From an uncultured Anaerolineae bacterium (GTDB lineage Bacteria > Chloroflexota > Anaerolineae > Aggregatilineales > J027): a stretch of DNA of 56,688 nucleotides. Each line of letters opens with the position of its first letter. The first letter of the stretch is position 1. The position numbers and the translations under genes were made by a program. The notes under the pieces are model-generated. The model ran no database searches and was not told the DNA's origin. It saw nothing but the letters and a program-made list of their open reading frames with translations. Positions 18,238 through 53,336 of this stretch are shown piece by piece. Location of the stretch: positions 1 to 56,688 of the forward strand of contig CAZKZS010000002.1 in the NCBI GenBank assembly GCA_964557285.1, given 5' to 3'.

Positions 18238-18497
18238 GGAAAGGGACGCCACGCCCGGATTTGTTCCAGGGCGAGGTCATGGAGTGTAAGGTCTGCGGCA
18301 AGCGCGAGCAGTCGGACCCGGAGAAGGAATCCGGCTGGACAGTCTTACAAATCGATGACCAGGTGACCTACTTCTGCCCGGCCTGCTGGCACGGTGCCGG
18401 CGCCAAGGTCGGCTATGCGGAGGTGATGAAGCTGGCGGTGCTGATGCAGACCGACGGCCGCGCCCTGCGGATTTTCCGGTCGCTGCTGAGGGGCTGA
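18210..18497 (+). CDS. Zn-ribbon small protein, paralog 1
   Basis: AAGGAG RBS. Basic N-terminus, then FQGEVMECKVCGKREQS...WTVLQ...YFCPAC. Paralogous to 19481..19735. Confidence 0.6.
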   Translation: MSKKRRSVVGKGTPRPDLFQGEVMECKVCGKREQSDPEKESGWTVLQIDDQVTYFCPACWHGAGAKVGYAEVMKLAVLMQTDGRALRIFRSLLRG

Positions 18498-19456
18498 TGA
18501 GCAGCCACCAGCTGGCACAGGTCGGCGACCTGTATACCTGTGTGGTGTGCGGCTGGAACTGGAAGCGGATGCCGTCGGACGAGTGTCCCGGCGTCCGCCG
18601 CTACCGCTGGGACCCCTGGCCGGAGCAGCTGATGACCAAAAACCAGCTGGCGAAGGCAGGCTACCAGACGGGGCGCCGCCTGCCGCCAGTGGCCGGGGTG
18701 ATTGCCCGCGAAGACTCACCGGGCGGCTGGCTGCGGCTGTACGACCCCACTCAGGCCGTGCCAAAGCAGCCAGTGACGCCGCGCCAACAGGTCGCGCTCG
18801 CCAAAGCCCAGGCGGCGCGGAAGTGCCGGGAATGCGGCCGCACCCTGAGCCGTCGGGAGCGCCGGCTGTGCTGGACGTGTGATGCGCGGTTGGAAGCCCG
18901 CTACTGGGCGGCCTCGGTCTTGCAGCGGGGAGCCGTCATTCTGGACACGGAAACGACCGGGCTGGACAACGCCGAGATCATCGAACTGGCGGTCATTGAC
19001 GCCTACGAGCGCGTGCTGCTGAACACCCGGATTAAACCCCTCTGCCCGGAGCGGATGTATGAAGTGGGCAGCCGGGGTCTGAGCGCCTTCGACATTCACG
19101 GAATCAGCGCGGAGATGCTGGTGGATGCACCGACGTTCGCGGAGGTCTACCCGCGCCTGCGTCGCGTTGTGGAAGGCCGCCCGGTGCTGGTCTATAACCT
19201 GCGCTTCGACCGCGACCGCCTGCGGGAGGACTGCGAGCGCTGGCAGCTGCCGGCACTGGATTTTTCGGCCTGGGACTGCGCGATGGAGTGGTACGCACAG
19301 TGGATCGGTGAATGGTCGTATCGGCGTGGCTCGTTTCGCTGGCAGCCGCTGAACGGCGGGCACGATGCGCTGGGAGACTGCCTGGCATGTCTGGATCGGA
19401 TGAGGCGCATGGCGAACGCAACAATGCCGCGCACGCGAACGGGTGTGCTACAATAG
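18497..19456 (+). CDS. DEDDh 3'-5' exonuclease (DnaQ/epsilon-like) with N-terminal double Zn-ribbon region
   Basis: ILDTETTGL (ExoI), VYNLRFDRDRL (ExoII) and GGHDALGDCLA (ExoIII, H-type). N-terminal CVVCG...C and CRECG...CWTC. Confidence 0.8.
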   Translation: MSSHQLAQVGDLYTCVVCGWNWKRMPSDECPGVRRYRWDPWPEQLMTKNQLAKAGYQTGRRLPPVAGVIAREDSPGGWLRLYDPTQAVPKQPVTPRQQVALAKAQAARKCRECGRTLSRRERRLCWTCDARLEARYWAASVLQRGAVILDTETTGLDNAEIIELAVIDAYERVLLNTRIKPLCPERMYEVGSRGLSAFDIHGISAEMLVDAPTFAEVYPRLRRVVEGRPVLVYNLRFDRDRLREDCERWQLPALDFSAWDCAMEWYAQWIGEWSYRRGSFRWQPLNGGHDALGDCLACLDRMRRMANATMPRTRTGVLQ

Positions 19457-24101: not shown

Positions 24102-24513
24102 AATCTTTAATCACTTCGATGGTTTTGATGTGGGTCACGGTGGCGCTGTCCACATGCACCTCCGGCACGTTGGACAGGCCCATGACGCGAATCTGGCGGT
24201 CCATGATCTTCAGCGCGGCGTCAATGGCCTCCAGGTCACCCGCCGCCGCTTTGTCCCAGACCCCGACCAGCAGCTTGTCGAGCCGGGCCAGCACGAGCAT
24301 GATCCGGTCGTTCGCTTTCTGGGCGTACTGCTGGCGCCATTCCTTCAGGATGGCCTTGTAGTCGCTGGCGATGGTGCCCACCGACACGCCCAGCTTGTCG
24401 GCGATGACGCGGTAAGACACCCCGCCGCGCACCTGGGCCGCGACGAACACCCGGCGCTCCTCAATCGAGAGGCGGTCGGCAGCTTGCGCCTGACGGCGGT
24501 CGTTGAGGGTCAT
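24073..24513 (-). CDS. terS: Terminase small subunit (HTH type)
   Basis: 146 aa. HTH GVSYRVIADKLGVSVGTIASDY. It overlaps the terL start by 29 nt. Confidence 0.65.
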   Translation of the reverse strand: MTLNDRRQAQAADRLSIEERRVFVAAQVRGGVSYRVIADKLGVSVGTIASDYKAILKEWRQQYAQKANDRIMLVLARLDKLLVGVWDKAAAGDLEAIDAALKIMDRQIRVMGLSNVPEVHVDSATVTHIKTIEVIKDYGGPADEPA

Positions 24514-25454
24514 CGTTCAGCCGCTTTTGTGTTCAGGTAATGCTGGGCCAGTTTGACCAGCGCGTCGACGGGGCGATCCGGGTCGATGTCGGCGCGGGCG
24601 ATCAGGGTCTTGATCGCTTTTTGCAGCACGGCCGCGTCTTTGGCCTTGAGGTCGCTGGCACGCAGCAGCACAGGCAGCGACACCAGCGGCAGGCCGTCCT
24701 TGAGGTCGCCGTCCGCGTTGAAGACGTGTTCGGCCAGGTCGCCGGCACGGGCGAGGAAAAATTGCAGGATGAGGTGCAGGGCAACCGCTACATTTTTGAC
24801 ATCGAAGGTGGCGCGGCTGATGTCCAGCGCGTCCAGATAGCGGCCGTAGTCGGTCCATCGCGCCAGCCAGGCTTCGTTCCCCGCCACCAGCTGGGCGGCC
24901 AGGGCAAACGCTTCACGGGCGGCGTCACGTTCGTCCGGCAGAAAGACCAGGCTGACCGTCTGGAAGCCAAAGGCGGCCTCGGACAGCGGCTGGATTTTCG
25001 TCGGCTCCAGCAGAGCAATCGTTTTGTCGTCCACGCCGGAGTACACCCGGTCTTCGACCGTCGGGATGGACTCATAGAGGATTTTGAGGATGGCCGGGTC
25101 ATCCTGCCCGAAGATGCTGTTGTGGGACAGCTGGACGGCGATGCGGCGGGCCGGGTCGTGGTAGCCGAGAATGACCTGAACCTCAATGGTGGCGAGGCCG
25201 GCGTCGATGGCGGCCTGAACGCGGTGGTTGCCGCTGAGGACTTCGAGGAAGGGCTGACCGTCGTCATCCACCTGCGGGGTGCGGGTGGTGTCGTCGTGCA
25301 GTTCCCAGCAGAGTGGGGTCGAGGTCAGCACACCGTCGCGTTTGATGTTTTCAACCAGACGGCGGTACATCTCGGCCGGCATGTAGTGGGCGTTCAGGTC
25401 GAGCAGCTTGAGGGTTCGTGGGTCGACCGTGCGGGTGTGCAGTTGCAGAGTCAT
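24510..25454 (-). CDS. ParB-like nuclease domain protein
   Basis: Internal ATG at 25452-25454 with a GGAG RBS. LDLNAHYMP, DGVLTSTPL and LSGNHRVQAAIDAG form a ParB N-terminal (sulfiredoxin-fold) pattern. 314 aa. Confidence 0.65.
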   Translation of the reverse strand: MTLQLHTRTVDPRTLKLLDLNAHYMPAEMYRRLVENIKRDGVLTSTPLCWELHDDTTRTPQVDDDGQPFLEVLSGNHRVQAAIDAGLATIEVQVILGYHDPARRIAVQLSHNSIFGQDDPAILKILYESIPTVEDRVYSGVDDKTIALLEPTKIQPLSEAAFGFQTVSLVFLPDERDAAREAFALAAQLVAGNEAWLARWTDYGRYLDALDISRATFDVKNVAVALHLILQFFLARAGDLAEHVFNADGDLKDGLPLVSLPVLLRASDLKAKDAAVLQKAIKTLIARADIDPDRPVDALVKLAQHYLNTKAAER

Positions 25455-26809
25455 CGGGAGGGCTCCTGGTGTCCGTGTCTGGCTTTCCAGCGGGGCAGCG
25501 CCTCGGCGAGCGGCCACTGTCCGGCGGCGGCCTGGTAGTTGACCATCCATGCCGTGTCTGCGTCCGGCGTGCGCTTGCGTGAGTACAGCGTAAACAGCCC
25601 TCGGTATTTCATGCTGTTGGGGTTGTCCGTGAAGGCGGTCGTGAAGACGTGGCGAACCCGGTGTTTGTTCATTCGTTCCGCCAGCACCTGGGCCTCGCGG
25701 CTGAGCGCGGCGTACAGCACCAGCTTGGACAGGCGCGGGTAGTCGGTCGGCGCGACGGCGAAGTCGGACAGCAGGTAGATCGTGTCCGGGGCGCTGAAGG
25801 GGTGGGACGGGCTGCTGAAAGCGAAACATCCGACCAGCCGGCCGTCGACCAGGACGGCATAGGCTGGTCCGGCAGCACCCGGCGCGATGTGCCGGTTCAG
25901 GTACTGGGAGCGCAGTGCGTTGAACTGCGCGGGGGTGAGCGGGGCCAGGGACAGGGTATCGCCAATCGGCTGCCCTGGGGACAGGCGCGGCAGCGGCACG
26001 GCGGCCAGCGGCTGGCGGGGCTGCACCACGCCGATTTTGTGGGTCGAGGAGTACATATACACCTCCGGGGCGCGGGGTGTAGTTTTGACGACCCCCCGGA
26101 GCGCCAGGTCGGGTATCTGGAAGTTGAGCCAGAGAATCCAGTGGGCGCGGGTGGCGGCGATGTGCTGGGCCATCCGGGTGATGTCGGCCTGGTTGAGGAG
26201 AGTGTACGCGGGCTGCGGCCAGTCAAACAGGGTGTTGATTTTGGCGAACAGCCGCTCGTAGCCGCCGGCGAAAAACGGCGGAAAGGACAGGAAAGCCGCC
26301 CCGTCGGGCAGCTGGTCGATCCGATCCAGCACGTCCCCGTTGAAGTAGGAGGCCAGCGGCAGGCGCACCGTACCCAGCCGGGCGCGGGTGGTGTCGAGCA
26401 GGCCCTCCCACTGCTGGCGATAGGCGGCCAGCATCCGGCGGTGATACGGGTTGTCGCGCCCCTGTCCGGTTTGGTCCAGGTGGTCGACCATCCGCGTGAG
26501 CAGCATGACGGTGGCGACTTTGCCGTCGTCGGTGGCGAGGCCGGGCTGCATCCACGCCAGGGCGTCGGCAGCGGACGGCTTCAACTGAAAGTGGATCGGC
26601 TGCCCGGCGAAGAACTGCCCCAGGACGTAGGAGTAGACCGAGACATCGTTGCTGTGCAGGCGCATCCCTGGCGCGTACTCGTAGAGCAGCCGCTCCAGGG
26701 TGAAGTGGCCGGAACAGCCAACGTACACGTCGCTGACCTGCCCGACCCATTCGCGGACGGCGGCAGCGATCATCGATCTCACATCGGGCATAGTGGTTCC
26801 CAGAAACAT
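25451..26809 (-). CDS. Two-domain protein: Dam-like (D12-class-like) methyltransferase-fold N-terminal half with atypical FPPF motif, plus uncharacterised C-terminal domain
   Basis: ATG at 26807-26809 with an AAGGA RBS. VYVGCSGHF (motif-I-like) lies about 155 aa before LSFPPFFAGGYERLF (motif-IV-like). The C-terminal VLVDGRLVGCFAFS...IYLLSDFAV is GNAT-like. The assignment is tentative. Confidence 0.3.
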   Translation of the reverse strand: MFLGTTMPDVRSMIAAAVREWVGQVSDVYVGCSGHFTLERLLYEYAPGMRLHSNDVSVYSYVLGQFFAGQPIHFQLKPSAADALAWMQPGLATDDGKVATVMLLTRMVDHLDQTGQGRDNPYHRRMLAAYRQQWEGLLDTTRARLGTVRLPLASYFNGDVLDRIDQLPDGAAFLSFPPFFAGGYERLFAKINTLFDWPQPAYTLLNQADITRMAQHIAATRAHWILWLNFQIPDLALRGVVKTTPRAPEVYMYSSTHKIGVVQPRQPLAAVPLPRLSPGQPIGDTLSLAPLTPAQFNALRSQYLNRHIAPGAAGPAYAVLVDGRLVGCFAFSSPSHPFSAPDTIYLLSDFAVAPTDYPRLSKLVLYAALSREAQVLAERMNKHRVRHVFTTAFTDNPNSMKYRGLFTLYSRKRTPDADTAWMVNYQAAAGQWPLAEALPRWKARHGHQEPSR

Positions 26810-26834
26810 ACGGGGAGTCCTTTGGAAAGAAAAA

Positions 26835-26876
26835 GGCCCGGTCGCAGAGGTACTGAGGGGAAGGTGCGGACCGGGC
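26835..26876 (-). terminator. Hairpin terminator/attenuator after the tRNA-like gene
   Basis: Minus strand: GCCCGGTC ... GACCGGGC (8-bp stem) followed by CTTTTTCTTTCC. An A-run on the other side makes it potentially bidirectional. Confidence 0.5.
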
Positions 26877-26895
26877 AAAAAGTGAAAAATGGTTA

Positions 26896-26966
26896 AGCGG
26901 ACCCCCGGACTCGAACCGGGCAATCCGGCGCGGTACGCCGGCACAGCACCTGGCTGTCCAATCCGC
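26896..26966 (-). tRNA. tRNA-like gene, Gly-type identity with anticodon ACC (atypical)
   Basis: Hand-folded cloverleaf: acceptor GCGGATT/GGTCCGC, D arm ACAG-CCAGGTG-CTGT, anticodon arm CCGGC-GTACCGC-GCCGG, variable loop ATTG, T arm CCCGG-TTCGAGT-CCGGG, discriminator T. Atypical features are G8, G32 and A34. No encoded CCA. Confidence 0.5.
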
Positions 26967-31756: not shown

Positions 31757-32358
31757 AGGCGTGGCGCCTGTCCAACCAGGTCGAGGTGCCGTTCAACAGC
31801 GCTGAAGATGTGTCCGGCAGTGTCGAGATTCTGATGGCGGAAGCGCTGCAATTCGATCCACGCGCCCTGGAACGCGACCTGCTGCGGAAGGAACACGCGG
31901 CCGCTGTTGAGGCGCTGATGAGAGAACGGAGCGACGCGCAGAAGTGGCTGAAGGAGGTCGAGCGCCGGCTGAAGGAACACGGCGTCGATCTGGTCGCCTG
32001 TCCGGTCGTGGAGGTGAGCCGCGATGACCTGCGGGCCATCGGGTACGACCCGACCCGGATCACCGATGACGACCTGCGCCGGCTGGCGGACGACTGCGCG
32101 GGTGAATACCTCGCTGAAGTCTTCGCCGAGCAGCTGGTGGAAAAGGCGGCGCTGCGGTTCCTGCCGCGCCTGAACCCGGACGAGCGCACCTGGCTGGTCT
32201 GTGACGCCGCCGGCAGCATCCTGCGTGTGGAAGTGTACACGCTGGCGCGGGCGCAGCGAGAAGCGGCTGCCTTCCCCCACTTCATCCTCCAGACCGAGGT
32301 CGACGGTGTGCCGGTCACGCTGGACGCCTTTCTCAAGGAGCAGGGCCATGTCGGATAA
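31753..32358 (+). CDS. Hypothetical coiled-coil protein
   Basis: TTG at 31753 overlaps the upstream TGA (TTGA). The first ATG is at 31834. The start is uncertain. Confidence 0.5.
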   Translation: MKAWRLSNQVEVPFNSAEDVSGSVEILMAEALQFDPRALERDLLRKEHAAAVEALMRERSDAQKWLKEVERRLKEHGVDLVACPVVEVSRDDLRAIGYDPTRITDDDLRRLADDCAGEYLAEVFAEQLVEKAALRFLPRLNPDERTWLVCDAAGSILRVEVYTLARAQREAAAFPHFILQTEVDGVPVTLDAFLKEQGHVG

Positions 32359-33295
32359 ACCCCACTGCGCGATTACCGGACAGCCCATCGATGGGCTGGG
32401 TGTGTGGTACGGTGACCAGCTGGTCAGCCGGGAGACGTGGGCGCGGATTGAAGCCTACGCGGATCAGGTGAACGCCCGCGCTGCCCGCCTGGCGGAGCGG
32501 GCCGCCCGGACCCAGCAGGAAGCCGCCAGCGACCTGAACCGCGCCCGCCAGATGGCATCGCACATTCCCTTCGGGCAGCCGATCCTGGTCGGCCATCACA
32601 GCGAGGGGCGGGACCGGCGCTACCGGGCGCGGATTGATCGCACGTACCGTCGCGGTTTCGAGAAGCTGGAAAAAGCCAGACGGCTTGCCGAACGGGCAGA
32701 CGCGGCGGCGGCCACTACCGCCATCCAGACCGAAGACCCGGCGGCGCTGCTGAAGCTGCGGGAAAAACTGGCGGCACGGGAAGCCGCTCAGCAGACCATG
32801 AAGCAGGAAAACGACGCCGTGCGAAAGGCAGTGAAGGCGGCGCCCGACGACAAAACCGCCCAGGTGAACGCGCTGGTGGGTCTGCTGCCCGGCCTGACCG
32901 AGGCGCGGGCCTTCCAGCTGCTGACCCCGGATTTTCTGGGCCGTCGCGGCCACCCGGACTACAGGCTGAAAAACAACGGCGCGGAAATCCGGCGCCTGAA
33001 GCACCGCATCCAGAGTCAGGAAGCGCGGGAAAAGCAGCTGGCGGCGCAGGACAGCGCGGCGCCGCTGGTCGAGCAGCGCGGCCAGGTGACGGTCGAACGG
33101 GACGTGGCGGCCAATCGGCTGCGCCTCCGCTTTCCGGGCAAGCCAAGCGCGGCGATTCGCACGGAACTCAAGGGGCGCGGCTTCCGTTGGGCGCCAAGCG
33201 AGGGCGCGTGGCAGGCGTATTTGACAGCCCGCGCCGAATGGGCTGCCGATTTCATCGTCAACGCCTATCACGAGGAGGTGGGCCATGAACGTTGA
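32348..33295 (+). CDS. DUF3560-like protein
   Basis: Internal ATG at 32348. FGQPILVGHHSEGRDRRYR motif and long helical repeats. 315 aa. Confidence 0.55.
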   Translation: MSDKPHCAITGQPIDGLGVWYGDQLVSRETWARIEAYADQVNARAARLAERAARTQQEAASDLNRARQMASHIPFGQPILVGHHSEGRDRRYRARIDRTYRRGFEKLEKARRLAERADAAAATTAIQTEDPAALLKLREKLAAREAAQQTMKQENDAVRKAVKAAPDDKTAQVNALVGLLPGLTEARAFQLLTPDFLGRRGHPDYRLKNNGAEIRRLKHRIQSQEAREKQLAAQDSAAPLVEQRGQVTVERDVAANRLRLRFPGKPSAAIRTELKGRGFRWAPSEGAWQAYLTARAEWAADFIVNAYHEEVGHER

Positions 33296-34013: not shown

Positions 34014-34976
34014 ATGGCGTACACATCAACCGTTGAACTGGTACCTGTCGAACACATCGTGCGCGGCGACAACGACCGGGAGGACTTTAACCCGACCGGC
34101 CTGCTGGAACTGGCAGACAGCATCCGGGCGAACGGCCTGGCGCAGAAGCCGGTCTACCGCAAACGGGCGGACGGCATGTATGAAATCGTCGCCGGCGAGC
34201 GGCGGACGCGGGCCATGCGGGACCTCCTGGGCTGGCGTCATATCCCGGCGGAAGTGTCTGAGGACATGGATGACCGCACCGCCAGCGCGATTATGCTGTC
34301 CGAAAACCGGGGCCGTCGCAACCTGAACCCCATTGAGGAGGCACGCGGCTACGCGAAGCGCCTTGACAGTGGGATGTGGGACCTGAAAACGCTGAGCGTT
34401 GACGCGGCGTGCAGCGAGGAGTTGATTAAACGCCGTCTGAAACTGCTGAAGCTGCGAGCGGAGTTGCAGCACCTGGTCAAAAGCGGCAGCCTGCCGCTCG
34501 GCCATGCCGAGGCGCTGGCGGACCTGGACCTCAATCGCCAGCTCCTGGCGTTCCAGGTCTACCGCGACCGGGGGCTGCCCCTGAACGCTTTCCAGGAGGT
34601 GGTGAACCGCTACCTGGCGGATCAGCAGCAGGACAGCCTGTTTGATCTGACCCGGCTGACGCTGGCGGTGCAGGACTACCCGGAGGGGGTGGAGGCCCGC
34701 AGCGGCAAACGTGCGCGGCTGTCGGCTCCCACCAGCCGCACCACCGGGGTGCAGCTGCCGCCCGTTGAAATCCAGGGAGCCAACGAAAACACGGGCGAGA
34801 TTGTGGAACGGTATCTCGCCGCTCTGCTGAGAGAAGGACACCAGGAGGCGGCCGTCGCGGTGGGCAATCTGTACGCCGCGCTGGTCGCCCACAATTATAT
34901 GAGCGCCAGTCCCCGCGCTTACCTCTCACGAGAGGACAGCCAGCGGGCGGGGGAAATCGCTCACGTTACACGATGA
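34014..34976 (+). CDS. ParB/Spo0J-like N-terminal domain protein
   Basis: ELADSIRANGLAQKPVYR, EIVAGERRTRA (GERR box) and ENRGRRNLNPIEEARGY. 320 aa. Confidence 0.8.
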   Translation: MAYTSTVELVPVEHIVRGDNDREDFNPTGLLELADSIRANGLAQKPVYRKRADGMYEIVAGERRTRAMRDLLGWRHIPAEVSEDMDDRTASAIMLSENRGRRNLNPIEEARGYAKRLDSGMWDLKTLSVDAACSEELIKRRLKLLKLRAELQHLVKSGSLPLGHAEALADLDLNRQLLAFQVYRDRGLPLNAFQEVVNRYLADQQQDSLFDLTRLTLAVQDYPEGVEARSGKRARLSAPTSRTTGVQLPPVEIQGANENTGEIVERYLAALLREGHQEAAVAVGNLYAALVAHNYMSASPRAYLSREDSQRAGEIAHVTR

Positions 34977-38090: not shown

Positions 38091-39005
38091 ATGTCCCATG
38101 CACTTCACTGGCGATTCCGTGCCAAAGCGCTCCGGGAAATGCGGTTTGAAGGCCGCCTGGCGATGCTGGTCGCTCTGCTGTCGCACAGCAACCTCCGGCT
38201 GCGCTGTTGGCCGTCAATGCAAACCCTGAGCGAGGAAACAGGGTACAGAAGCGAGGCGCTGAACAAAGCCAAGAAATGGCTGCTCAGCGTCGGCGCGATG
38301 TATGTGGTCCCCTACCGATACCGGGTCGGCAAAGAGCGGGAACTGCCCCGCACACAGCACGTCTACCAGCTGACCGGCGTGATGAAAATCGGTGACCAAT
38401 GGCAGCCCTATCTCTACGTATCCCCGGAGACGGTTCGGGGGATCATTGACGAAATAAAGCAGTTTGTTGTTTTTTCGGAGATCGAAATTTCGACTATCGA
38501 AAATTCGATCAGCGAAATTTCGACCAGCGAAACAGAAGATTCTTTAAAAGAGAAAAAAGGTAGTACCAAGAAAAAAGGTAGTACCAAGAAAAAGACTTCT
38601 CCGTCTCCAGCGCCGGAGGCAGAGCGCAAGCGCAACCTGATTTTCGACGAGGTAGCCCGCCTGCTGTTCCGACTTCAGGAGACAGCCCAACTGGACAAAA
38701 GTATTGCCGGGCGGATCGGCAAAATCACCGCCGCGCTGCGGGCCGAGTACGGCGTGACCGCCCCCCACGACGCTCAACAGGCCGCGCCGGCCGTGGACGC
38801 GCTGCGGAAGTTCGCGGCCTGGTACGACCGGGAGGCGAAAGGCGCCGCCCGCCCGCGTGACCTGACCAAGTTCAAAGAATGGTGGGCCAGTTGGAAGCAG
38901 GCGAACGCGCCGGGTGCACAGGAAGAAACCCCCATCCAATCGGTGGACGGCGACGCCATTCTGCGGCGGCTGGGCATTCGCCCGGCAGGAGGAAGCACGG
39001 CATGA
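38091..39005 (+). CDS. Replication initiator-like winged-helix protein (DnaD/O-like) containing the putative origin
   Basis: ATG at 38091 after GGAGGA. CWPSMQTLSEETGYRSEALNKAKKWL HTH. Followed by the DnaC-like loader with an ATGA overlap. Confidence 0.55.
   Translation: MSHALHWRFRAKALREMRFEGRLAMLVALLSHSNLRLRCWPSMQTLSEETGYRSEALNKAKKWLLSVGAMYVVPYRYRVGKERELPRTQHVYQLTGVMKIGDQWQPYLYVSPETVRGIIDEIKQFVVFSEIEISTIENSISEISTSETEDSLKEKKGSTKKKGSTKKKTSPSPAPEAERKRNLIFDEVARLLFRLQETAQLDKSIAGRIGKITAALRAEYGVTAPHDAQQAAPAVDALRKFAAWYDREAKGAARPRDLTKFKEWWASWKQANAPGAQEETPIQSVDGDAILRRLGIRPAGGSTA
38482..38588. repeat. Iteron cluster plus A-rich direct repeats (candidate origin of replication)
   Basis: TCGAAATTTCGA (38482), TCGAAAATTCGA (38497), GCGAAATTTCGA (38512) and GCGAAAC (38528), with a 15-nt period. 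Then AAAAAAGGTAGTACCAAG x2 (38553-38588). The stretch is locally AT-rich. Confidence 0.6.
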
Positions 39006-39859
39006 CGGAGAGTGTCACCAAGACCAAAGTGCCGCCGACTCATCGCTGGGATTACCCGGAAAAGCCGGCGTGGGCGGTCTGCGACGCCTGTTATGACGCC
39101 GGGTACATTCTGGTGTCGCCCAATGTCCAGCTGGGTCATCCCCTCTACGGTTATGAGGAGCGGCGGGTGTGTCCCGCGCTCTGCCCGAAAGGGCTGTCTT
39201 ACGCCGAGGAGCGCTGGAAGCTGCTGATTCCCCCCGGCTACCAGGGGTTCAGCTTTGAAACCTGGAGCGATCAGCTGGCTGCTGAGGAGAAAAACGGCAA
39301 ATGGCTGGGGTTTGTCGCCTGTGTCCGCTGGTCGCAGGCCGCCGATTTTTACACCTGGTCGCACGACCTGTTGAAGGAGGCCGCGCTGCCTTACAAGAAC
39401 CGGGCGAACTTCTACAAAAACAGCCTGGTGTTGACCGGGCGAGTGGGGACGGGGAAAACCGGGTTGATGGTCGCGGCGGCTCGCCGCCTGCTCGTGCGCG
39501 GGACGCATTTTGTGTATATCCGGCTGGACGACCTGATTGAATCGGTGCAGGCGACCTACCGCAAGGACTCCGGGCAGCCTACCGACGCGGCGCTGGCCCC
39601 TTATAAAGGGGTGCGGGTGCTGCTGCTGGATGAGGTCACTGAGAACACCAGCCGCGACAGGATTGAGATTCTGGAAGGGATCATCCGCTGGCGCTACATG
39701 AGCCGGCGGCCCTTCGTGATCACGACCAATCTCTCTCAAAGTCTGTTCCGCGAGGCATGGGGCGAGCGCATCGCCGATGTGGTCGATGCTCAGGCCCATT
39801 GGGTGGAGGTGCTGGGGAAAAACCTGCGGCCGATTGATCGCCCGCTGGGAGGGGCGTAA
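39002..39859 (+). CDS. DnaC/IstB-like AAA+ helicase loader
   Basis: Walker A GRVGTGKTG, Walker B VLLLDEV and an N-terminal Cys cluster. 285 aa. Confidence 0.8.
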   Translation: MTESVTKTKVPPTHRWDYPEKPAWAVCDACYDAGYILVSPNVQLGHPLYGYEERRVCPALCPKGLSYAEERWKLLIPPGYQGFSFETWSDQLAAEEKNGKWLGFVACVRWSQAADFYTWSHDLLKEAALPYKNRANFYKNSLVLTGRVGTGKTGLMVAAARRLLVRGTHFVYIRLDDLIESVQATYRKDSGQPTDAALAPYKGVRVLLLDEVTENTSRDRIEILEGIIRWRYMSRRPFVITTNLSQSLFREAWGERIADVVDAQAHWVEVLGKNLRPIDRPLGGA

Positions 39860-41411: not shown

Positions 41412-42530
41412 ATGAGCAGTTTACAGCAGGAACACAATGCCATTCTCAGCGAGATCGAGGGGCAGGTGGTGGGTTTGAATGTGGGCAACGGCTTCGTCAA
41501 GGGGACGAACGGCGCCGCCCGGCTGCCCGTGATTCCGTCGGTGGTGTCGGTCATGAATGAGATGGTCGAGTATGAGGAAAACTACTCGCCGGACGACATC
41601 CTGATCGAGTACCAGGGGGTGCGGTATGCGGTGGGATACACCACCCACCGGCTTGGCTCGGCGGCGGTGCCGGATATGTCCGGCGAGCGGATGATGTCCA
41701 GCGACTACCTGATTTTGTTTCTGGCGGCGCTCTCCCTCCTGGACCCCGGCGACAAACGCCGGAACGGGGATTTTGTGCCGGCGCGGGTGGTGCTGGTGGC
41801 ACCCCTCTCCAGCTACAACCGCAACCGGAAGCAGATCAAAAAGTACCTGGCCGGTTCCCACCAGGTCGGCGTCATCCAGAGCGGGCGCCTCCGGCGGACC
41901 GTGACGATCCACATCAGCGAGGACATGCTGAAAATTATCCCGGAAGGCCGGGGCACGCTGGCCTCGCTGACCCTGACCGACGAGGGGCTGCCGGTGGACC
42001 CGGACGGCTACAGCACCCGCACGGTCGGGATCGTGCAGGTTGGCACCCGCACCACCGAGGGCCTGTTTTACGAGCGCTCCCTGCCGAACGACTCGCGGTC
42101 GTGGGGGCTGTCCAAAGTCGGGCTGTCAACGGCCTGGAAGCACCTTCAGGACTATGCCCGCAACCGCCACAACTTCGAGTTGGATATGTACCAGGCCGAT
42201 GAAGCCCTGAAGGCGGGCGGGTTTTACATCGGCAAAAAATGGATCGACCTGGGTGAGGAGGAGCGGAAGGACTCCTTTATCGCCAATGTGGCCCGGCAGG
42301 TTGGCAATGAACTGGCGACCCGCTGGCAGAACGGCGAGGATACCTACCATTTGCTGCTGTCGGGCGGTGGGACGGAGGATGTCTATCCCTACCTGCGCCA
42401 GCGCTTCCCACATCTCACGCGGGTCAAAGACCCGGTGTATGCCGAGGCGGTTGGCGCCTGGAAATACGGCCTCTTCTCTGTGCTGAACGAGATGGGGATT
42501 ATCAAAAGGTACGTTGATGAACAGCAATAA
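41412..42530 (+). CDS. parM: ParM/StbA-like actin-fold segregation ATPase
   Basis: GLNVGNGFVKGTNG (phosphate-1) and HLLLSGGGTEDVYPYL (adenosine/GGG motif). 372 aa. Confidence 0.7.
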   Translation: MSSLQQEHNAILSEIEGQVVGLNVGNGFVKGTNGAARLPVIPSVVSVMNEMVEYEENYSPDDILIEYQGVRYAVGYTTHRLGSAAVPDMSGERMMSSDYLILFLAALSLLDPGDKRRNGDFVPARVVLVAPLSSYNRNRKQIKKYLAGSHQVGVIQSGRLRRTVTIHISEDMLKIIPEGRGTLASLTLTDEGLPVDPDGYSTRTVGIVQVGTRTTEGLFYERSLPNDSRSWGLSKVGLSTAWKHLQDYARNRHNFELDMYQADEALKAGGFYIGKKWIDLGEEERKDSFIANVARQVGNELATRWQNGEDTYHLLLSGGGTEDVYPYLRQRFPHLTRVKDPVYAEAVGAWKYGLFSVLNEMGIIKRYVDEQQ

Positions 42531-43169: not shown

Positions 43170-44020
43170 GTGTGGAGAAACAAAAATACCCGCACGCGGA
43201 GATGCTGGATACGGCGGCGCTGCTGGCGCATTGGCTGGCCTCAACATGCCGCCGTTTTGCGTTCGCGGGGTCGCTGCGGCGCGGGGCCGCCTGGGTCGGC
43301 GATATCGAGGTGGTGGCGGTGCCCGGCCCCGATACCCGGCCTGTGCTGGATGACCTGCTGGCGCAAGGCGTCCTCCGCAAGCGCCTGAACGTGAAGGGGA
43401 AACCCATCGGCTGGGGCGAGGAAAACCGCCACGCCGAGTTCTGGGATGGGGGGTATCAGCGCTGGGTGGCGGTTGATTTTTTTCTCACGACATATGAGCA
43501 GTGGGGCATCTATTTTGCGATCCGCACAGGGGACGCGGACGTGTCGCGGCTGCTGGTGACCAACCGGAGCGGCGGTGGACTGCTGCCGGAACCCATGATG
43601 GTCAAAGACTGGCGGCTGTGGAAGCTGCCCTACCCGCGTGTCCCTGGCGAGAATATGGTCCCGGAAGGAAGTGTCTGTCTGCTGACGCGGGAGGAGGTGG
43701 ATGTGTTCCGCTTTCTAAACCTGCCCTACATCGCCCCGTTCAAGCGATATGTGTCAGAGGTGCAGGCCATCCAGCGCTACAACTGGGGGGCACTCGTGGC
43801 GGCGTTGGACGGGCATAAAGACTGGCGGGTAAAGGAGGAGGAATATTTTTTCCGGGGTCAGCGACAGGCCCTGGCTGTGTACGTCAAAGACGCACTGCGG
43901 GGTTACGCGGCGTCCGGTGCCTGGCCGGCGGTCGGGGCGCGGCCAGGGGATACGGTGTACAGCCCGGACGGGCTGCCGTACCCGCTGCGGGCGATTCTGA
44001 ATCGACGGGAGGATGTATGA
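43166..44020 (+). CDS. Pol-beta-superfamily nucleotidyltransferase (Pol X-like palm) protein
   Basis: FAGSLRRGAAWVGDIEVV matches the GS..RRG...GD[IV][DE] NTase motif. The GTG at 43166 overlaps the upstream TGA. The first ATG is at 43202. Confidence 0.55.
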   Translation: MSVEKQKYPHAEMLDTAALLAHWLASTCRRFAFAGSLRRGAAWVGDIEVVAVPGPDTRPVLDDLLAQGVLRKRLNVKGKPIGWGEENRHAEFWDGGYQRWVAVDFFLTTYEQWGIYFAIRTGDADVSRLLVTNRSGGGLLPEPMMVKDWRLWKLPYPRVPGENMVPEGSVCLLTREEVDVFRFLNLPYIAPFKRYVSEVQAIQRYNWGALVAALDGHKDWRVKEEEYFFRGQRQALAVYVKDALRGYAASGAWPAVGARPGDTVYSPDGLPYPLRAILNRREDV

Positions 44021-44940
44021 CGGGAAAATCAGTGATGCTGGCGCCGGTCTTCGACTATACCGTGCTGACGGCAGACGAAGCGGCGTTTTTGGAAGAAGCC
44101 CGCGATTTCATCCGGGCGCGGTATGCACTCACTTATCAGCTGGTGGTCGAGATCGGCGCCCGGCTGATTGCCGTGCGAAACCGGATTCAGGACGGCACCT
44201 GGCTGGCCTGGGTGCGGGCTGAACTGCCGTTCTCGGAAGACACAGCAGAAAATTATATCAATGTCGCCAGGTATCTGCCCCAGGTGCCGGAGCAGGCGGT
44301 GTCGCAGTTCCAGATCGCCGCGCTGTATCGGCTGGCCTCGCCCAACGTGCCGGAGGAGGCGCGGCAGGCCGCCGTGAATCGTGCCAGCCAGGGGTTCCGG
44401 GTCGATAAAGACGAAGCCTATATCCTCTCCCATGCAGACCCGGACACACGGCGGCGGTATTTCAACGGCGAACTTCCCAAGCAGCAGGCCAAAGCGCTGG
44501 TGGAGGCACTGAACCACAAAGGGCTGCCGCCAGTGGTCCGCCGCTTCTGTTTACAGCAGCGGGTCAGTGACGCCGCTGTGGTGCGGTATCTGGCGCAGGC
44601 ATGGTTTGACCGGGAGCGGACGCGGCACCACAAACAGCCGCGCACGACCTGGGACGACCTGGTGGAAGACGGGGCGCTGAACGGGGACGGCTGGGCCGTG
44701 CCCCTGTCGATGGCGAACGAGCGAGATTTGCAGGTCTTCGTGAAGGAGCGCCAGCGGCACCATATCATCGAGGCGATGGAGGAGAAGTGGGAACAGCGGA
44801 TGGGGCGAGGACGGTTGACCCGCGTCCATGGGCAGCTGGTGGTGGCTGACCTCAGCCCGGTGCTGCTGGAGGTCTTTGGGCGTTATGAAGGGGAAGAAGT
44901 CGAAATCCAGATCCGGGTGAGAAAAAAAGCGGGCGGCTGA
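44017..44940 (+). CDS. DUF3102-like protein
   Basis: IGARLIAVRNRIQDGTWLAWVRAELPFSEDTAENYINVARY pattern. 307 aa. Tentative. Confidence 0.35.
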   Translation: MTGKSVMLAPVFDYTVLTADEAAFLEEARDFIRARYALTYQLVVEIGARLIAVRNRIQDGTWLAWVRAELPFSEDTAENYINVARYLPQVPEQAVSQFQIAALYRLASPNVPEEARQAAVNRASQGFRVDKDEAYILSHADPDTRRRYFNGELPKQQAKALVEALNHKGLPPVVRRFCLQQRVSDAAVVRYLAQAWFDRERTRHHKQPRTTWDDLVEDGALNGDGWAVPLSMANERDLQVFVKERQRHHIIEAMEEKWEQRMGRGRLTRVHGQLVVADLSPVLLEVFGRYEGEEVEIQIRVRKKAGG

Positions 44941-45948: not shown

Positions 45949-45977
45949 TTTACACAAGCTACACAAAAGTGTAGGAT
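45949..45977 (+). promoter_or_regulatory. Promoter P9 with operator CTACAC-AAAA-GTGTAG
   Basis: -35 TTTACA, 17-nt spacer, -10 TAGGAT (45972-77). Palindrome at 45959-45974. Confidence 0.75.
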
Positions 45978-46016: not shown

Positions 46017-46559
46017 ATGGCCGAATATATCTCTGTTCAATGCCCTGACTGCCAGGAATGGCGAAACATCCGGGCGCGTGACCTGCATAAAGTGACGCGC
46101 TGCCAGCGCTGCCATATGCGGCGGATCGCCGCGAAAGGCTGGGCCAAAACCGCCCTCCTGTATGGCACGAAATTTGCGGTTGAAAAACGGCGTGCGTGGG
46201 CGCTCCGCAACCCCTCCAGCCTGGAGCAGCGGGTGATGCGGGCGCTGAATACGCTGGGCGTTTCTTACGAGCGGGAATACTGGTTAGAAGACCAGGATAC
46301 CGGGAAGGTGGTCCTGGTCGATTTTTTGGTGGGCGGCGCGGCCGCGATTGAAGTCGACGGCACCTGGGCACACCAGTTCCATGCCGAGCGGGATGCCTGG
46401 CGGCAGGCGTTGATCACGAGCGCGGGGTATCCACTGCTGGTGCTGGACGAATCGACGGTGAAAGACCCGGAGCAGCTGCGTCGGTACCTGGGAATGGGCG
46501 TGACCACGCCGCCGCGATCCCGCGTGCGGATGTCCGCCTTACAGCCAGTGCTGCTGTGA
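46017..46559 (+). CDS. DUF559/Vsr-like (restriction-endonuclease fold) protein with N-terminal Zn ribbon
   Basis: CPDCQ...CQRCH. SLEQRVMRALNTLGVSYEREYWL...VDFLV...AIEVDGTWAH...D..R...L...GYPLLVL. Confidence 0.6.
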   Translation: MAEYISVQCPDCQEWRNIRARDLHKVTRCQRCHMRRIAAKGWAKTALLYGTKFAVEKRRAWALRNPSSLEQRVMRALNTLGVSYEREYWLEDQDTGKVVLVDFLVGGAAAIEVDGTWAHQFHAERDAWRQALITSAGYPLLVLDESTVKDPEQLRRYLGMGVTTPPRSRVRMSALQPVLL

Positions 46560-46568
46560 GGGGCGGCT

Positions 46569-47480
46569 ATGAACAACATTCTACTCCCGGAAGCAGTCGC
46601 CGGCGCGTTGCAGCGCGGGGCACCGCTGCTGGTGCATTGTTCCGGCGGCAAAGACTCTGACGCGATGCTGCTGGCAGTGTCGGCGGCACGCGCTCGCTGC
46701 GGCTGGCCGGGCCGCTTTCTGGTGGTTCACTGCGACCTCGGTCGCATGGAATGGCCGCAGAGCCTTCCTCATACCGAGCAAATGGCGGCAGCCGTCGGCG
46801 CGGAAATGGTCGTCCTGCGGCGCGAGTTTGACCTGCTGGAAGGCATAGAGCGGCGGCGGGACAAGATGCGGGCCGATGGCAAAAGTGGCCCGTTCTGGCC
46901 GGATGCGCGGTCGCGCTACTGCACGAGCGATTGGAAGCGCGATGTGACGGACCGCTGGATACGCCAGCAGTGGCCTCGTGACGCCGAGGTCATCAACGCG
47001 ATTGGCCTGCGTGCCGAGGAGAGCGCGGCTCGGAAACGGCGGGCAGTGGTCGTGAGTCGGAACTCGTGTGCGCCGTCCTATGGTCGCCAGGTCAACGACT
47101 GGCTGCCGATCCACCATTGGACCGAGCCGGAGGTGTGGGCACAGCTGGGGGTGTCGATGGCATATCTGGCATGGGTGCGCCAGCAGGTGCGGGACGGGCA
47201 GACACCCGACGCGCTGGGCTGGACCTGGCACCCAGCCTATGCCTACGGCAACCAGCGGGTCAGCTGTATGCTGTGCGTCTTAGCGAACCGGAACGACCAC
47301 CGCAACGGGGCCGCGCACAATCCTGCGCTGTATCGCCACCTGGTCGATCTGGAGCTTGAAAGCGGCTACAGCTTCCAGAATGGGCGCTGGTTGGCCGATC
47401 TGTCCCCCGACCTGCTACGCCCGGATCAACGGACCAGACGGGACGTGATGAAAACAGAAGCCACGCCGGTACTGATTTAG
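46569..47480 (+). CDS. PAPS-reductase-family PP-loop protein (DndC/IbrA-like)
   Basis: PP-loop VHCSGGKDSDAM, RYCTSDWKRD and a C-terminal SCMLCVLAN Cys pair. 303 aa. Confidence 0.75.
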   Translation: MNNILLPEAVAGALQRGAPLLVHCSGGKDSDAMLLAVSAARARCGWPGRFLVVHCDLGRMEWPQSLPHTEQMAAAVGAEMVVLRREFDLLEGIERRRDKMRADGKSGPFWPDARSRYCTSDWKRDVTDRWIRQQWPRDAEVINAIGLRAEESAARKRRAVVVSRNSCAPSYGRQVNDWLPIHHWTEPEVWAQLGVSMAYLAWVRQQVRDGQTPDALGWTWHPAYAYGNQRVSCMLCVLANRNDHRNGAAHNPALYRHLVDLELESGYSFQNGRWLADLSPDLLRPDQRTRRDVMKTEATPVLI

Positions 47481-47489
47481 GAGGATGTC

Positions 47490-47807
47490 ATGAGTTGGAA
47501 GCAGACCGTTAAGAACATGGAAAAAGCGGCGGCGTATGTGCTGGAGCATCCCCAGGACTGGCATACCGCCAGCAGCCTCGCAGACGCGGTGAACGCGCCA
47601 CAGACGGATGTTGAGCATATCGCCCGCAGGCTGCATGGGATGTATCTGCGCGGGGAAATCAAACGCCGCCGCCGCGAGAAACGCACGATTGTGGAATATC
47701 AAGCGAAGGAGAGAAGTTCTGATGGAATCCCAGGTTCTGGTGCTGACACTGGCGCCCGTGCAGATGAGCGAGGGCGCAAGGAAAATCGAGATCGATTATC
47801 TGCGTGA
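47490..47807 (+). CDS. Winged-helix-like small protein
   Basis: AGGAGGA RBS. Its 3' 86 nt overlap the next gene. Confidence 0.5.
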   Translation: MSWKQTVKNMEKAAAYVLEHPQDWHTASSLADAVNAPQTDVEHIARRLHGMYLRGEIKRRRREKRTIVEYQAKERSSDGIPGSGADTGARADERGRKENRDRLSA

Positions 47808-48505: not shown

Positions 48506-48534
48506 TTGACACACACTACACAACAGTGTAAGAT
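48506..48534 (+). promoter_or_regulatory. Promoter P10 with operator TACAC-AACA-GTGTA
   Basis: -35 TTGACA, 17-nt spacer, -10 TAAGAT. Palindrome at 48517-48530. TTAACAATC box and leader hairpin at 48561-48589. Confidence 0.75.
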
Positions 48535-52034: not shown

Positions 52035-53336
52035 ATGCCACCCGAACGTCGTGAATTTACAGTTCCCAAAGAGAAGGTGCAGGCAGTTATCGAGCAGGGG
52101 AAATCAAAGGGCTGGACACTCATCAGCCAGCAGCAGCAGGATGGCACAGTTTTGCTGACCTTTGAACATCAGGCGGATGCATCTTCACCTCCCACGAAAA
52201 AACCCTTTTGGAAGGGTCCAAACTGGCTTCTTATCGGCATTCTTGTTTTTTGCTGCGTTTTTTGCTGCGGTGGATTTTCTGTTTTCGCTTTGCTCGTAGC
52301 ACCCAGCGATGAAGAGATTGCCGAGATGCAGACCGTAGAAGCACAGGAACGGGCAATGCGAGATACACAGAGAGCGGAGGACAGCGCCACCGAAATCGCT
52401 GCCCAGAACGCCACCGCGACTATCATAGCCCTGACACCAACGGTCACGCTTACATGGACTCCCACCATGACCAATACCCCTTTACCGACTGAGACGCCAA
52501 CCCCCTTGCCACCAACAGCCACCGTGTTTTACGAACCCGCCGCTGATGCTCAAGGACGTGTTCCAGACGATTTTCAGGCCATGATGACGGCGATGGTCGC
52601 CAGAATCCGGGCGGTGGATGGCGTAATAAACGTGTCGCAGCACACTGTCATGTACGACGGGGACAGACCGGATGGATATTTTACAGGGTTCAAGATTGAG
52701 GCCGAAGACGGGGCCAATGAGGACGAACAATTGGTCACGGAAATCCGTCAGGCCATCCGCAATGTATTGTTTGAATTCTACGGCTCATATCCATACTTAG
52801 GGGTGGCGCTCACCGTTAACGACGGCGACGAACTGATATGGACCTGGGGCAGCGATGATGAAATCTGGTTTGCCCAGAACCCCTCCACCGGGGATACGGT
52901 TTTCCACATTGAGCCAACGGTTGTCCCTACTGCCAAGGCAACTCAGTCACTGGATGAAATTGCAAGTTCAATTATCCGCAACACGGTGGGCACAGAACTG
53001 CGCGATAGTGATGTGGAAATGGTAATCGCAAATGATAGAGTAGTCACCCTGCGTTACCACCTGAGAGAGACTGGTCTCCCATTCTTCTATAAACTCCAAG
53101 CAGATACCGATTTTGTCTTACTGGTCTGCAATCTGCGGAAGAACGGCTTCACCACGCAGACCTTTCAATTCTCAGCCGATGCACCGGTTACAGACAGCTT
53201 TGGAAATAAGGTCTATGTAGAAGCGGTAGAGATGATTCTTGCGCCGGAGACTGCCGCCCGTATCAACTGTGATAATCCTAAAGGAGTCGTACTTGAAGAT
53301 ATTGCAGAACGTTATACGGTGAATCTTCCTTACTAA
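52035..53336 (+). CDS. Membrane-anchored protein with Thr/Pro-rich linker (moron gene 1)
   Basis: TM segment WLLIGILVFCCVFCCGGFSVFALLV and linker TPTVTLTWTPTMTNTPLPTETPTPLPPT. Low-G+C codon usage. 433 aa. Confidence 0.65.
   Translation: MPPERREFTVPKEKVQAVIEQGKSKGWTLISQQQQDGTVLLTFEHQADASSPPTKKPFWKGPNWLLIGILVFCCVFCCGGFSVFALLVAPSDEEIAEMQTVEAQERAMRDTQRAEDSATEIAAQNATATIIALTPTVTLTWTPTMTNTPLPTETPTPLPPTATVFYEPAADAQGRVPDDFQAMMTAMVARIRAVDGVINVSQHTVMYDGDRPDGYFTGFKIEAEDGANEDEQLVTEIRQAIRNVLFEFYGSYPYLGVALTVNDGDELIWTWGSDDEIWFAQNPSTGDTVFHIEPTVVPTAKATQSLDEIASSIIRNTVGTELRDSDVEMVIANDRVVTLRYHLRETGLPFFYKLQADTDFVLLVCNLRKNGFTTQTFQFSADAPVTDSFGNKVYVEAVEMILAPETAARINCDNPKGVVLEDIAERYTVNLPY

Follow-up and report, generated by a model that had tools for sequence, protein, structure and literature searches.

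A Zn-ribbon EDxHD nuclease gene beside a phage PAPS reductase-like gene: a possible free-standing homing endonuclease and a probable DNA-modification enzyme

The EDxHD family of homing endonucleases includes I-Bth0305I, with catalytic residues E170, D196, N208, H213 and D222, and the free-standing phage enzyme Hef; presence in some loci and absence from others, insertion on either flank and occupation of a gene slot are typical of free-standing homing endonuclease genes in phages (PMC3239194). Among PP-loop proteins with a 3'-phosphoadenosine-5'-phosphosulfate (PAPS) reductase-type domain, DndC binds a 4Fe-4S centre through three cysteines (PMC10853773), all proven phosphorothioation systems need a PAPS-domain protein together with a P-loop nucleoside triphosphatase (NTPase) (PMC12914056), and a PAPS-domain::Dam gene of a Vibrio phage, together with one neighbouring gene, protects against the Dnd system of the host (Piel et al., bioRxiv 10.1101/2021.05.05.442762). 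Here we analyse a phage locus in a 56,688-nt stretch of DNA assigned to an uncultured Anaerolineae bacterium (contig CAZKZS010000002.1, hereafter the window), where two plus-strand open reading frames (ORFs), one for a 180-residue nuclease (46017-46559) and one for a 303-residue PAPS-like PP-loop protein (46569-47480), are separated by 9 nt. From sequence, fold and gene context we put at roughly 45% the reading that the nuclease is a free-standing homing endonuclease tied to PAPS-like genes and that the PP-loop enzyme probably modifies DNA for anti-restriction. The two genes and their diagnostic segments are:

46017-46559, plus strand: nuclease of 180 residues made up of a CxxC...CxxC Zn ribbon at the N-terminus, a helical linker that is conserved, and a PD-(D/E)xK core of Vsr-like/EDxHD type (ORF, profile and model)
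46041-46112, plus strand: Zn-ribbon segment with C9, C12, C29 and C32 (alignment of 40 members)
46209-46394, plus strand: catalytic core with the EDxHD-equivalent residues E70, D102, D114, H119 and D126, and E112 (alignment to 3r3p)
46569-47480, plus strand: 303-residue PP-loop protein of the PAPS_reduct superfamily, stand-alone mobile-element type (Pfam, PHROG and model)
46641-46658, plus strand: SGGKDS PP-loop, the ATP pyrophosphatase signature, residues 25-30 (invariant in 22 of 22 homologues)
46920-46937, plus strand: CTSDWK motif, residues 118-123, with invariant C118 and K123 (22-sequence alignment)
47229-47276, plus strand: HPAY..GN.R.SC..C motif with invariant C233 and C236, SCMLC in the window (22-sequence alignment)

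An exhaustive profile search placed the nuclease in a family of 999 protein clusters at E ≤ 1e-3 (196 at E ≤ 1e-10), whose members are mostly 160-200 residues long and match over their full length. In the alignment of 40 members, C9, C12, C29, C32, G41, D102, E112 and H119 are invariant and P66, E70, F103 and G115 nearly so, and a family of this size with such invariant residues implies that the ORF is a real gene rather than a chance reading frame. The motifs are CPDC at residues 9-12, CQRC at 29-32, NPSSLE at 65-70, VDFLV at 101-105, AIEVDG at 110-115 and H119, with D126 sitting in AERD. By far the best match of the profile in the PDB is 3r3p, the catalytic domain of I-Bth0305I (E 1e-12), followed by the DUF559 structure 3hrl (E 2e-6) and then Bax1. 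The profile alignment to 3r3p pairs E170 with E70, D196 with D102, N208 with D114, H213 with H119 and D222 with D126, indicating that the active site is complete, since all five EDxHD residues have their counterparts. The AlphaFold (AF2) model, built on 10 sequences with a predicted local distance difference test score (pLDDT) of 81, contains two N-terminal hairpin strands (residues 4-8 and 15-19), three helices and an alpha/beta core; its top Foldseek match in the PDB is again 3r3p (template-modelling (TM) score 0.72 normalised to the target, root-mean-square deviation 3.5 Å, probability 1.0, E-value 1.5e-3), and the next are restriction-like nucleases of R2 retrotransposons and TnsA. Among viral models (BFVD), the structural neighbours are DUF559 proteins, annotated homing endonucleases, group I intron proteins and 'restriction enzyme' entries, with one neighbour named 'very-short-patch-repair endonuclease', and the sole PADLOC match is a weak one to a 'homing endonuclease' model.

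The nuclease lies under every Pfam gathering threshold (DUF559 17.9 against 20.6 bits, DUF2726 20.4 against 24.7, MTES_1575 19.3 against 38.2), and neither it nor any of its 40 aligned relatives matches the Pfam Vsr family or a Pfam NUMOD entry. Because 21 of the 40 relatives match DUF559 at E ≤ 0.01 (14 match MTES_1575) while the window protein stays below threshold, the kinship to DUF559 is one of superfamily level. The D...ExD/N...H core is common to the window nuclease, to DUF559, MTES_1575 and DUF2726 proteins and to Vsr proper, but these families, unlike the window nuclease, have no defined link to PAPS-like genes. With the I-Bth0305I family, including phage Hef, the window nuclease shares the catalytic fold and the five signature residues, and it is phage-borne, free-standing, sporadic and variable in position beside one kind of host gene. 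It differs in its N-terminus, where the Zn ribbon and the conserved helical linker stand in place of NUMOD/helix-turn-helix repeats, and in being only 180 residues long and outside any intron or intein; its homing is a prediction. The first-pass annotation had described the two genes at these coordinates with their motifs, all of which the ORF list and motif positions confirm, and its description of the first gene as a Zn ribbon joined to a restriction-endonuclease-fold DUF559/Vsr-like core is borne out by the profile and the 3r3p fold match; the catalytic residues that it had proposed to inspect are intact in all five EDxHD positions when aligned to I-Bth0305I.

The case for homing comes from the company that nuclease relatives keep. 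Their contexts were taken from searches with the nuclease, and PAPS-like loci were in turn screened with a hidden Markov model of it. From the nuclease side, four further lineages (L098, L001-6, L142 and L191) have a relative of 31-50% identity no more than 1 kb from a PAPS-like gene: P0271 in L098 (50% identity) overlaps a 389-residue PAPS-like gene, and P0002 in L001-6 (42%) stands two genes upstream of a PAPS-like gene 47% identical to that of the window. P0003 in L007 (41%) is on an uninformative 3-kb contig, and the more distant P0258, P0239, P0225 and P0274 (34-27%) have no recognisable modifier adjacent. Since the lineages with the association are five and independent, and the PAPS family occurs in only 13 of 50,697 phage genomes, the association is far beyond chance from this side. 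From the PAPS side, none of 79 viral loci and 2 of 80 genomic loci have the nuclease nearby, that is, 2 of 159 independently sampled, in both cases immediately adjacent to the PAPS-like gene. Of the plasmid and phage records with a PAPS homologue (313 and 13), not one carries the nuclease, and a tblastn search with the nuclease and its relative P0135 found no relative in 72,556 plasmids or 50,697 phage genomes. Scans with nuclease alignments gave no locus on viral contigs, for want of a sufficiently conserved stretch; in metagenomes they returned one incomplete 1.3-kb contig (L103) and one fragment, and in genomes nothing. Even among the nearest relatives of the window PAPS-like protein (53-54% identity), P0006 belongs to a locus without the nuclease. 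On the PAPS side, the nuclease is dispensable, being absent from about 99% of related loci. UvrD-type genes also occur beside nuclease relatives: in L099 (7842-11456) the ORF of a relative overlaps those on its two sides, one for a UvrD-type helicase and one for an N6 DNA methylase, and in L002 a UvrD-RNase T fusion lies just upstream.

The arrangement can be followed most closely in a conserved module of Chloroflexota metagenome-assembled genomes (loci L113-L192; examples L126 4843-10713 and L156 4904-10856), which has the order three unknown genes-Prok-E2_D-ThiF-PAPS-dn150-dn300-SSB and whose genes are each present in 33-41 of the 96 loci analysed. The nuclease occurs in 2 of about 37 module copies, at least 35 sister modules being without it. 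In L142 the order is E2_D-ThiF-(two ORFs)-nuclease-PAPS-dn300, with the nuclease upstream of the PAPS-like gene, and in L191 it is ThiF-PAPS-nuclease-dn300, with the nuclease downstream and in the dn150 slot. The L191 PAPS-like protein is 70% identical to nuclease-free copies, and the L191 nuclease merely 29-43% identical to other PAPS-linked nucleases. The PAPS-like gene beside the L191 nuclease (582-1543) is split into two overlapping reading frames, reflecting either an assembly error or a pseudogene. The module also places an E1/E2-like pair beside the TtuA-like PP-loop enzyme, which hints at a sulfur-carrier or ubiquitin-like step.

In its distribution the nuclease behaves as a selfish element: it is free-standing and sporadic, and occurs at one kind of site among collinear relatives. 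This pattern speaks for a mobile, selfish nuclease and against an obligate partnership, and homing is the best supported explanation because the presence-and-absence and either-flank pattern is combined with sequence and fold identity to I-Bth0305I. The locus would then consist of two different things travelling together. The nuclease would be a Vsr-like/EDxHD homing-type enzyme in which the Zn ribbon replaces the usual NUMOD DNA-binding region, from a clade specialised on PAPS-like genes that inserts immediately upstream or downstream of them; it would cut nuclease-free alleles near this site, and repair would copy the nuclease gene in. In the window phage it would now head an operon under operator control and be expressed along with the PP-loop gene. 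The PP-loop enzyme, for its part, would adenylate a nucleic-acid target and then substitute it as TtuA or DndC do, sulfur being the most plausible substituent and a three-cysteine Fe-S site, as in those enzymes, a plausible route of transfer. Its target would most probably be the element's own DNA, marked soon after entry and thereby able to escape host restriction.

Several observations weigh against this explanation. The N-terminal region is conserved across the nuclease family, a region that is often variable in homing enzymes. The nuclease gene has a GC content of 0.63 and a third-position GC content (GC3) of 0.75, the values of its neighbours, so nothing flags it as a recent arrival, and no nuclease-free variant of the same phage was present among about 24 contigs examined. 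P0272 in L099, a nuclease relative at 35% identity, overlaps an N6 methylase gene and follows a UvrD helicase; this overlap fits the logic of a nuclease plus a modifier equally well. The asymmetry of the association, with the nuclease accompanied by a modifier and the modifier often alone, is also the pattern of restriction-modification systems with orphan modifiers. The flanking genes and other window ORFs scanned include neither a partner NTPase nor a cysteine desulfurase. Finally, the target site and cleavage of the nuclease are predictions, and the substrate, product and Fe-S cluster of the PP-loop enzyme are proposed by analogy.

The PP-loop ORF is a real gene, given its more than 1,100 homologue clusters and a score above the Pfam threshold for PAPS_reduct PF01507 (31.0 bits against a gathering threshold of 22.5, residues 21-191); it also matches PHROG 424 (E 6e-31). 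Invariant among 22 aligned sequences are SGGKDS, C118 and K123 in 'RYCTSDxKR', G146, R148, E151 and S152 and, in the C-terminal part, H221-P222-A223-Y224, G227, N228, R230, S232, C233 and C236. The family has three invariant cysteines; DndC has in addition a cysteine dyad of its own, and no further conserved dyad was seen in this alignment. The AF2 model is Rossmann-like (pLDDT 92.3), with the 4Fe-4S tRNA thiolase TtuA (Foldseek E 5e-7) and yeast PAPS reductase (E 1.5e-6) as top fold matches at TM-scores of about 0.4-0.55. Likeness to PDB sequences is confined to the PP-loop half of TtuA and TilS, and a PDB sequence search with the C-terminal half gave no match, for which reason any equation of C118, C233 and C236 with the Fe-S ligands of APS reductase or DndC has to be kept tentative; by resemblance to TtuA and DndC, the three form a candidate Fe-S or sulfur-transfer site. 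In three homologues (P0025, P0072 and P0090), the segment 'WP.S..RYCT(S/A)..K...ID K.LR', which holds the invariant cysteine of the active site, is present in 2-4 tandem copies (alignment columns about 140-250), an unusual internal repeat.

Comparison with characterised subfamilies leaves the protein outside DndC, SspD, BrxP, IbrA and CysH. TtuA relies on a ThiF-type E1 for activation of its sulfur carrier, and cellular relatives of the window protein similarly adjoin a ThiF/E1-like gene. TtuA/Ncs6-type tRNA thiouridine synthetases are its top structural match and its top PDB sequence match over the PP-loop half, but the TM-scores to TtuA are about 0.4, the sequence likeness is confined to the N-terminal 75 residues, no ThiF/E1-like gene is adjacent in the window phage, and a tRNA substrate is not suggested by the window context. 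DndC, SspD and BrxP belong to the same PP-loop superfamily, with weak likeness from CTSDWK to the Arg loop, and share a context of DNA modification and defence; DndC also has three conserved cysteines. The window protein is much shorter than DndC (about 450-500 residues) or BrxP (779 residues). DndC was rejected as an assignment (TIGR03183 28.5 bits against a cut-off of 290.4; PADLOC DndC models 29-32 bits over residues 111-195 only), as were SspD (30 bits) and BrxP (27 bits), which gave partial PADLOC matches only. No DndD-type P-loop/ABC ATPase, DndE or DndA was detected by PADLOC among five flanking genes or by Pfam among the flanking genes and 36 other window ORFs; no SspB/SspC or BrxC/Z/L partner was found in the flanking genes, nor SspB/C or BrxC among the other window ORFs scanned, and the protein itself has no extra domain such as DUF4007. 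Assignment to IbrA fails because DUF3440 is lacking, PAPS_reduct being the sole Pfam match. The likeness to DndC, IbrA and phage PAPS-reductase-like proteins noted in the first-pass annotation therefore stands for the PAPS_reduct superfamily and PHROG 424, and not for DndC or IbrA themselves. Assimilatory PAPS/APS reductase (CysH) has its catalytic cysteine in a flexible C-terminal tail with an ECGLH-type motif. In the window protein this tail is absent, as there is no cysteine after residue 236; CysH was rejected on these grounds, together with the missing ECGLH-type motif and the mobile-element genes around the locus. An NCBIfam scan gave no CysH model, the only sulfate-assimilation model being CysD at 16.6 bits against a cut-off of 195.

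The anti-restriction part of the explanation draws on where the PP-loop family occurs. Homologues are present in 13 of 50,697 isolated phage genomes, at no more than 35% identity, where the PAPS-like gene adjoins an adenine methylase in phage PseuP_222 and a DNA methyltransferase in phage Dolphis; in 313 of 72,556 plasmid records, among small hypothetical genes; at 79 loci of viral contigs; and at 80 loci of bacterial genomes, mostly Chloroflexota metagenome-assembled genomes and often several per genome. Closer relatives on viral contigs stand beside C5 DNA methylases or Mom-family genes: a C5 methylase lies within a few kb of the PAPS-like gene in viral L021, L026 and L028 and in genomic L165, and a Mom-family gene in L019 (1997-2617) and L021. 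On the P0009 contig, whose first gene is cut by the contig end, the order is Mom-helix-turn-helix-PAPS, the PAPS-like protein being 91% identical to that of L001. The neighbours on plasmids, phages and integrative elements are methylases, Mom, E1/E2-like genes and SSB, and cys genes are not the company of this family. The Vibrio phage PAPS-domain::Dam protein likewise carries a PAPS_reduct domain and is encoded by a phage, in a gene slot whose anti-restriction content varies, and has the sole experimental phenotype for a phage PAPS-like gene in the literature searched; it differs in its Dam fusion, was assayed with a second gene, and is comparable to the window protein by domain only. A 2026 survey proposed Aca-regulated PAPS reductases as anti-defence gene candidates (PMC13551039). 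Genomic context and the published anti-Dnd and Aca evidence together support a role in nucleic-acid modification or anti-restriction and disfavour sulfate assimilation, and the family probably belongs with DNA-modification and anti-restriction functions.

Of the alternatives, the one that survives best, though we consider it unlikely, takes the genes as a restriction-modification-like or addiction pair, in which the PP-loop enzyme marks phage DNA and the nuclease cuts unmarked host or competitor DNA, or senses the mark. It would account for the tight operon with its 9-nt spacing and single promoter, for the repeated adjacency or ORF overlap in L098, L142 and L191 and for the N6 DNA methylase overlapped by the 35%-identical relative; restriction enzymes with a Vsr-like or DUF559 fold do exist (BFVD names; MTES_1575 matches), and a nuclease found with a modifier against a modifier found alone resembles restriction enzymes and orphan methylases. 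Homing is nevertheless preferred, as the nuclease does not occur at about 99% of PAPS loci, some with a PAPS-like copy 70% identical to one that has the nuclease beside it, the closest characterised relative of the nuclease is a homing enzyme, and its distant relatives (27-34% identity) stand without a recognisable modifier; modification by the PP-loop family is moreover hypothetical. The nuclease has no modification-reader domain, and the modification-sensing function once proposed for it found no evidence. Less likely again is that the nuclease and the PP-loop enzyme form a compact two-gene module for restriction-modification or modification-repair with a new chemistry, carried by phages and integrative elements against unmarked DNA; if this were true, a single enzyme of roughly 300 residues would introduce an ATP-dependent, possibly sulfur-based mark with no DndD, SspC or BrxC ATPase.

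In Escherichia coli the vsr gene overlaps dcm, and by analogy the nuclease could be a repair nickase that fixes lesions or mismatches arising from DNA modification by the PP-loop enzyme. The Vsr-like catalytic core, the nuclease genes that overlap or abut modification-type genes in several lineages, including the N6 methylase, and the BFVD neighbour named for very-short-patch repair agree with this, yet we regard it as improbable, because the nuclease has no Pfam Vsr match and a Zn-ribbon architecture unlike Vsr, its absence at most PAPS loci means that any need for repair is exceptional, and the modification, hence the lesion, is hypothetical. Still less probable is that the enzyme serves the phage as a nuclease of general purpose, in breakdown of host DNA, recombination or packaging, and happens to neighbour the PP-loop gene; distant family members do have various small early or replication-region genes around them and no modifier close by, and the composition is native-like, but chance cannot place five independent lineages within 1 kb of genes as rare as the PAPS-like ones. 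The idea of the PP-loop gene as an auxiliary metabolic gene that encodes a genuine CysH-type reductase and boosts host sulfate assimilation has the Pfam PAPS_reduct match, the PHROG and GenBank name 'PAPS reductase' and the yeast PAPS reductase fold match in its favour, but is barely credible, given the missing CysH tail, the CysD score far under its cut-off, the methylase, Mom, E1/E2-like and SSB neighbours and the 313 plasmids with homologues.

The view of the two genes as a DNA-modification pair, put forward in the first-pass annotation, is therefore partly supported: the nuclease-PAPS association recurs in five lineages, and DNA-modification genes (N6 and C5 methylases, Mom, a Dam fusion) accompany the PAPS family, but about 99% of PAPS loci are without the nuclease, which changes sides and has a homing endonuclease as its closest PDB match. 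The two genes are new members of superfamilies already described. For the Zn-ribbon EDxHD nuclease family, uncharacterised with about 1,000 clusters, and for its attachment to PAPS-like genes, no description was found in the literature searched. If the family does home on PAPS-like genes, it would constitute a new lineage of homing enzymes whose host gene is defined, and would mark recombination boundaries in these elements; should nuclease and modifier instead function as one module, restriction-modification systems would gain a new kind. Few phage and plasmid genes are misread as often as stand-alone 'PAPS reductase' genes, which are routinely counted as auxiliary genes of sulfur metabolism, and the main value of the locus lies in correcting this reading and in posing a question that can be put to the test, whether the nuclease is a homing enzyme or half of a new restriction-modification pair.

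A partnership of the IbrA/IbrB type, with one of two ParB-like proteins encoded elsewhere in the window, had also been considered. The PP-loop protein shares with IbrA the PAPS_reduct domain and a mobile-element setting but differs in having no DUF3440 and no adjacent ParB-like gene, its neighbours being the nuclease and a 105-residue ORF. One of the two ParB-like proteins is upheld: 34014-34976, with ParB_N and HTH_ParB, is the sole Pfam ParB of the window. It lies about 11.6 kb upstream of the gene pair, has an actin-like ALP gene (41412-42530) about 6.4 kb downstream and looks like a partition protein. The other, 24510-25454 on the minus strand, has no Pfam match in a scan of its containing ORF (24510-25829). 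ParB-like genes are outside the 15 most widespread neighbour families of the 96 related PAPS loci, and homologues of the window ParB-like proteins or of its DUF3102 protein were not found beside PAPS genes elsewhere. With the nearest ParB this distant and of partition type, the partnership was rejected.

Transcription of the pair appears to start from a promoter that overlaps an operator-like palindrome, and an AGAAGGG Shine-Dalgarno-like site precedes the ATG of the nuclease. The surrounding elements are:

45949-45977, plus strand: sigma-70-like promoter TTTACA-17-TAGGAT (promoter scan)
within 45952-45973, plus strand: palindromic operator-like element CTACAC-N4-GTGTAG, inside the promoter (promoter scan)
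47490-47807, plus strand: 105-residue ORF immediately 3' of the PAPS-like gene, with GGAGG (47480-47484) ahead of it (ORF list)
48506-48534, plus strand: next copy of the promoter/operator motif, probably the start of the following transcription unit (motif scan)
14933, 27077, 28120, 31149, 36154, 36923, 45952 and 48509, plus strand: copies of the motif (motif scan)

The promoter/palindrome motif (ACACAnnCTACACnnnnGTGTA, overlapping the -10-like TAGGAT) thus has 8 plus-strand sites, ahead of plus-strand gene blocks. An extended form of the motif gave 13 matches on both strands of the window against 0.17 expected by chance, which identifies it as a real repeated regulatory element, and the recurring palindrome promoters look like a repressor-controlled set. 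Because the next copy lies at 48506, the nuclease unit is probably one of four genes, and probably consists of the nuclease, the PP-loop gene, the 105-residue ORF and one or two more small ORFs. The 105-residue ORF, annotated as a gene in one Joint Genome Institute (JGI) contig, is probably co-transcribed with the PAPS-like gene; it has no family match in Pfam, PHROG or PADLOC scans, and no homologue was found beside PAPS genes elsewhere. About 30-50 metagenomic contigs carry this locus in unaltered form, and one variant has a 12-nt duplication in the nuclease tail. As neither the locus nor 25 kb of the structural region has near-identical DNA in 50,697 phage genomes, the window phage is without a sequenced isolate relative.

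The remaining genes give an outline of the element. In addition to the partition-type ParB (34014-34976) and the actin-like ALP (41412-42530), the window encodes:

44017-44940: DUF3102 protein
38879-39859: IstB-like ATPase
18497-19456: RNase T-like exonuclease
32201-33295: DUF3560 protein

RNase H and DUF488 matches fall in window ORFs whose position was not pinned down. As judged from these sequences, the gene set suggests a plasmid-like prophage lifestyle. On the minus strand, 25451-26944 encodes a 497-residue protein with Pfam matches to DAM-like-phage1 (E 3e-67) and GNAT-phage-like (E 7e-54), a candidate second DNA-modification gene of the phage, whose stop overlaps the start of the 24510-25454 ORF; these are followed on the same strand by an ORF with a sigma-70-region-4-like helix-turn-helix, a 441-residue ORF and the portal gene. 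A 433-residue ORF with no Pfam match (52035-53336, plus strand) lies in a low-GC island, with GC 0.51 and GC3 0.54 against about 0.62 and 0.77 elsewhere, and is probably a recently acquired accessory gene.

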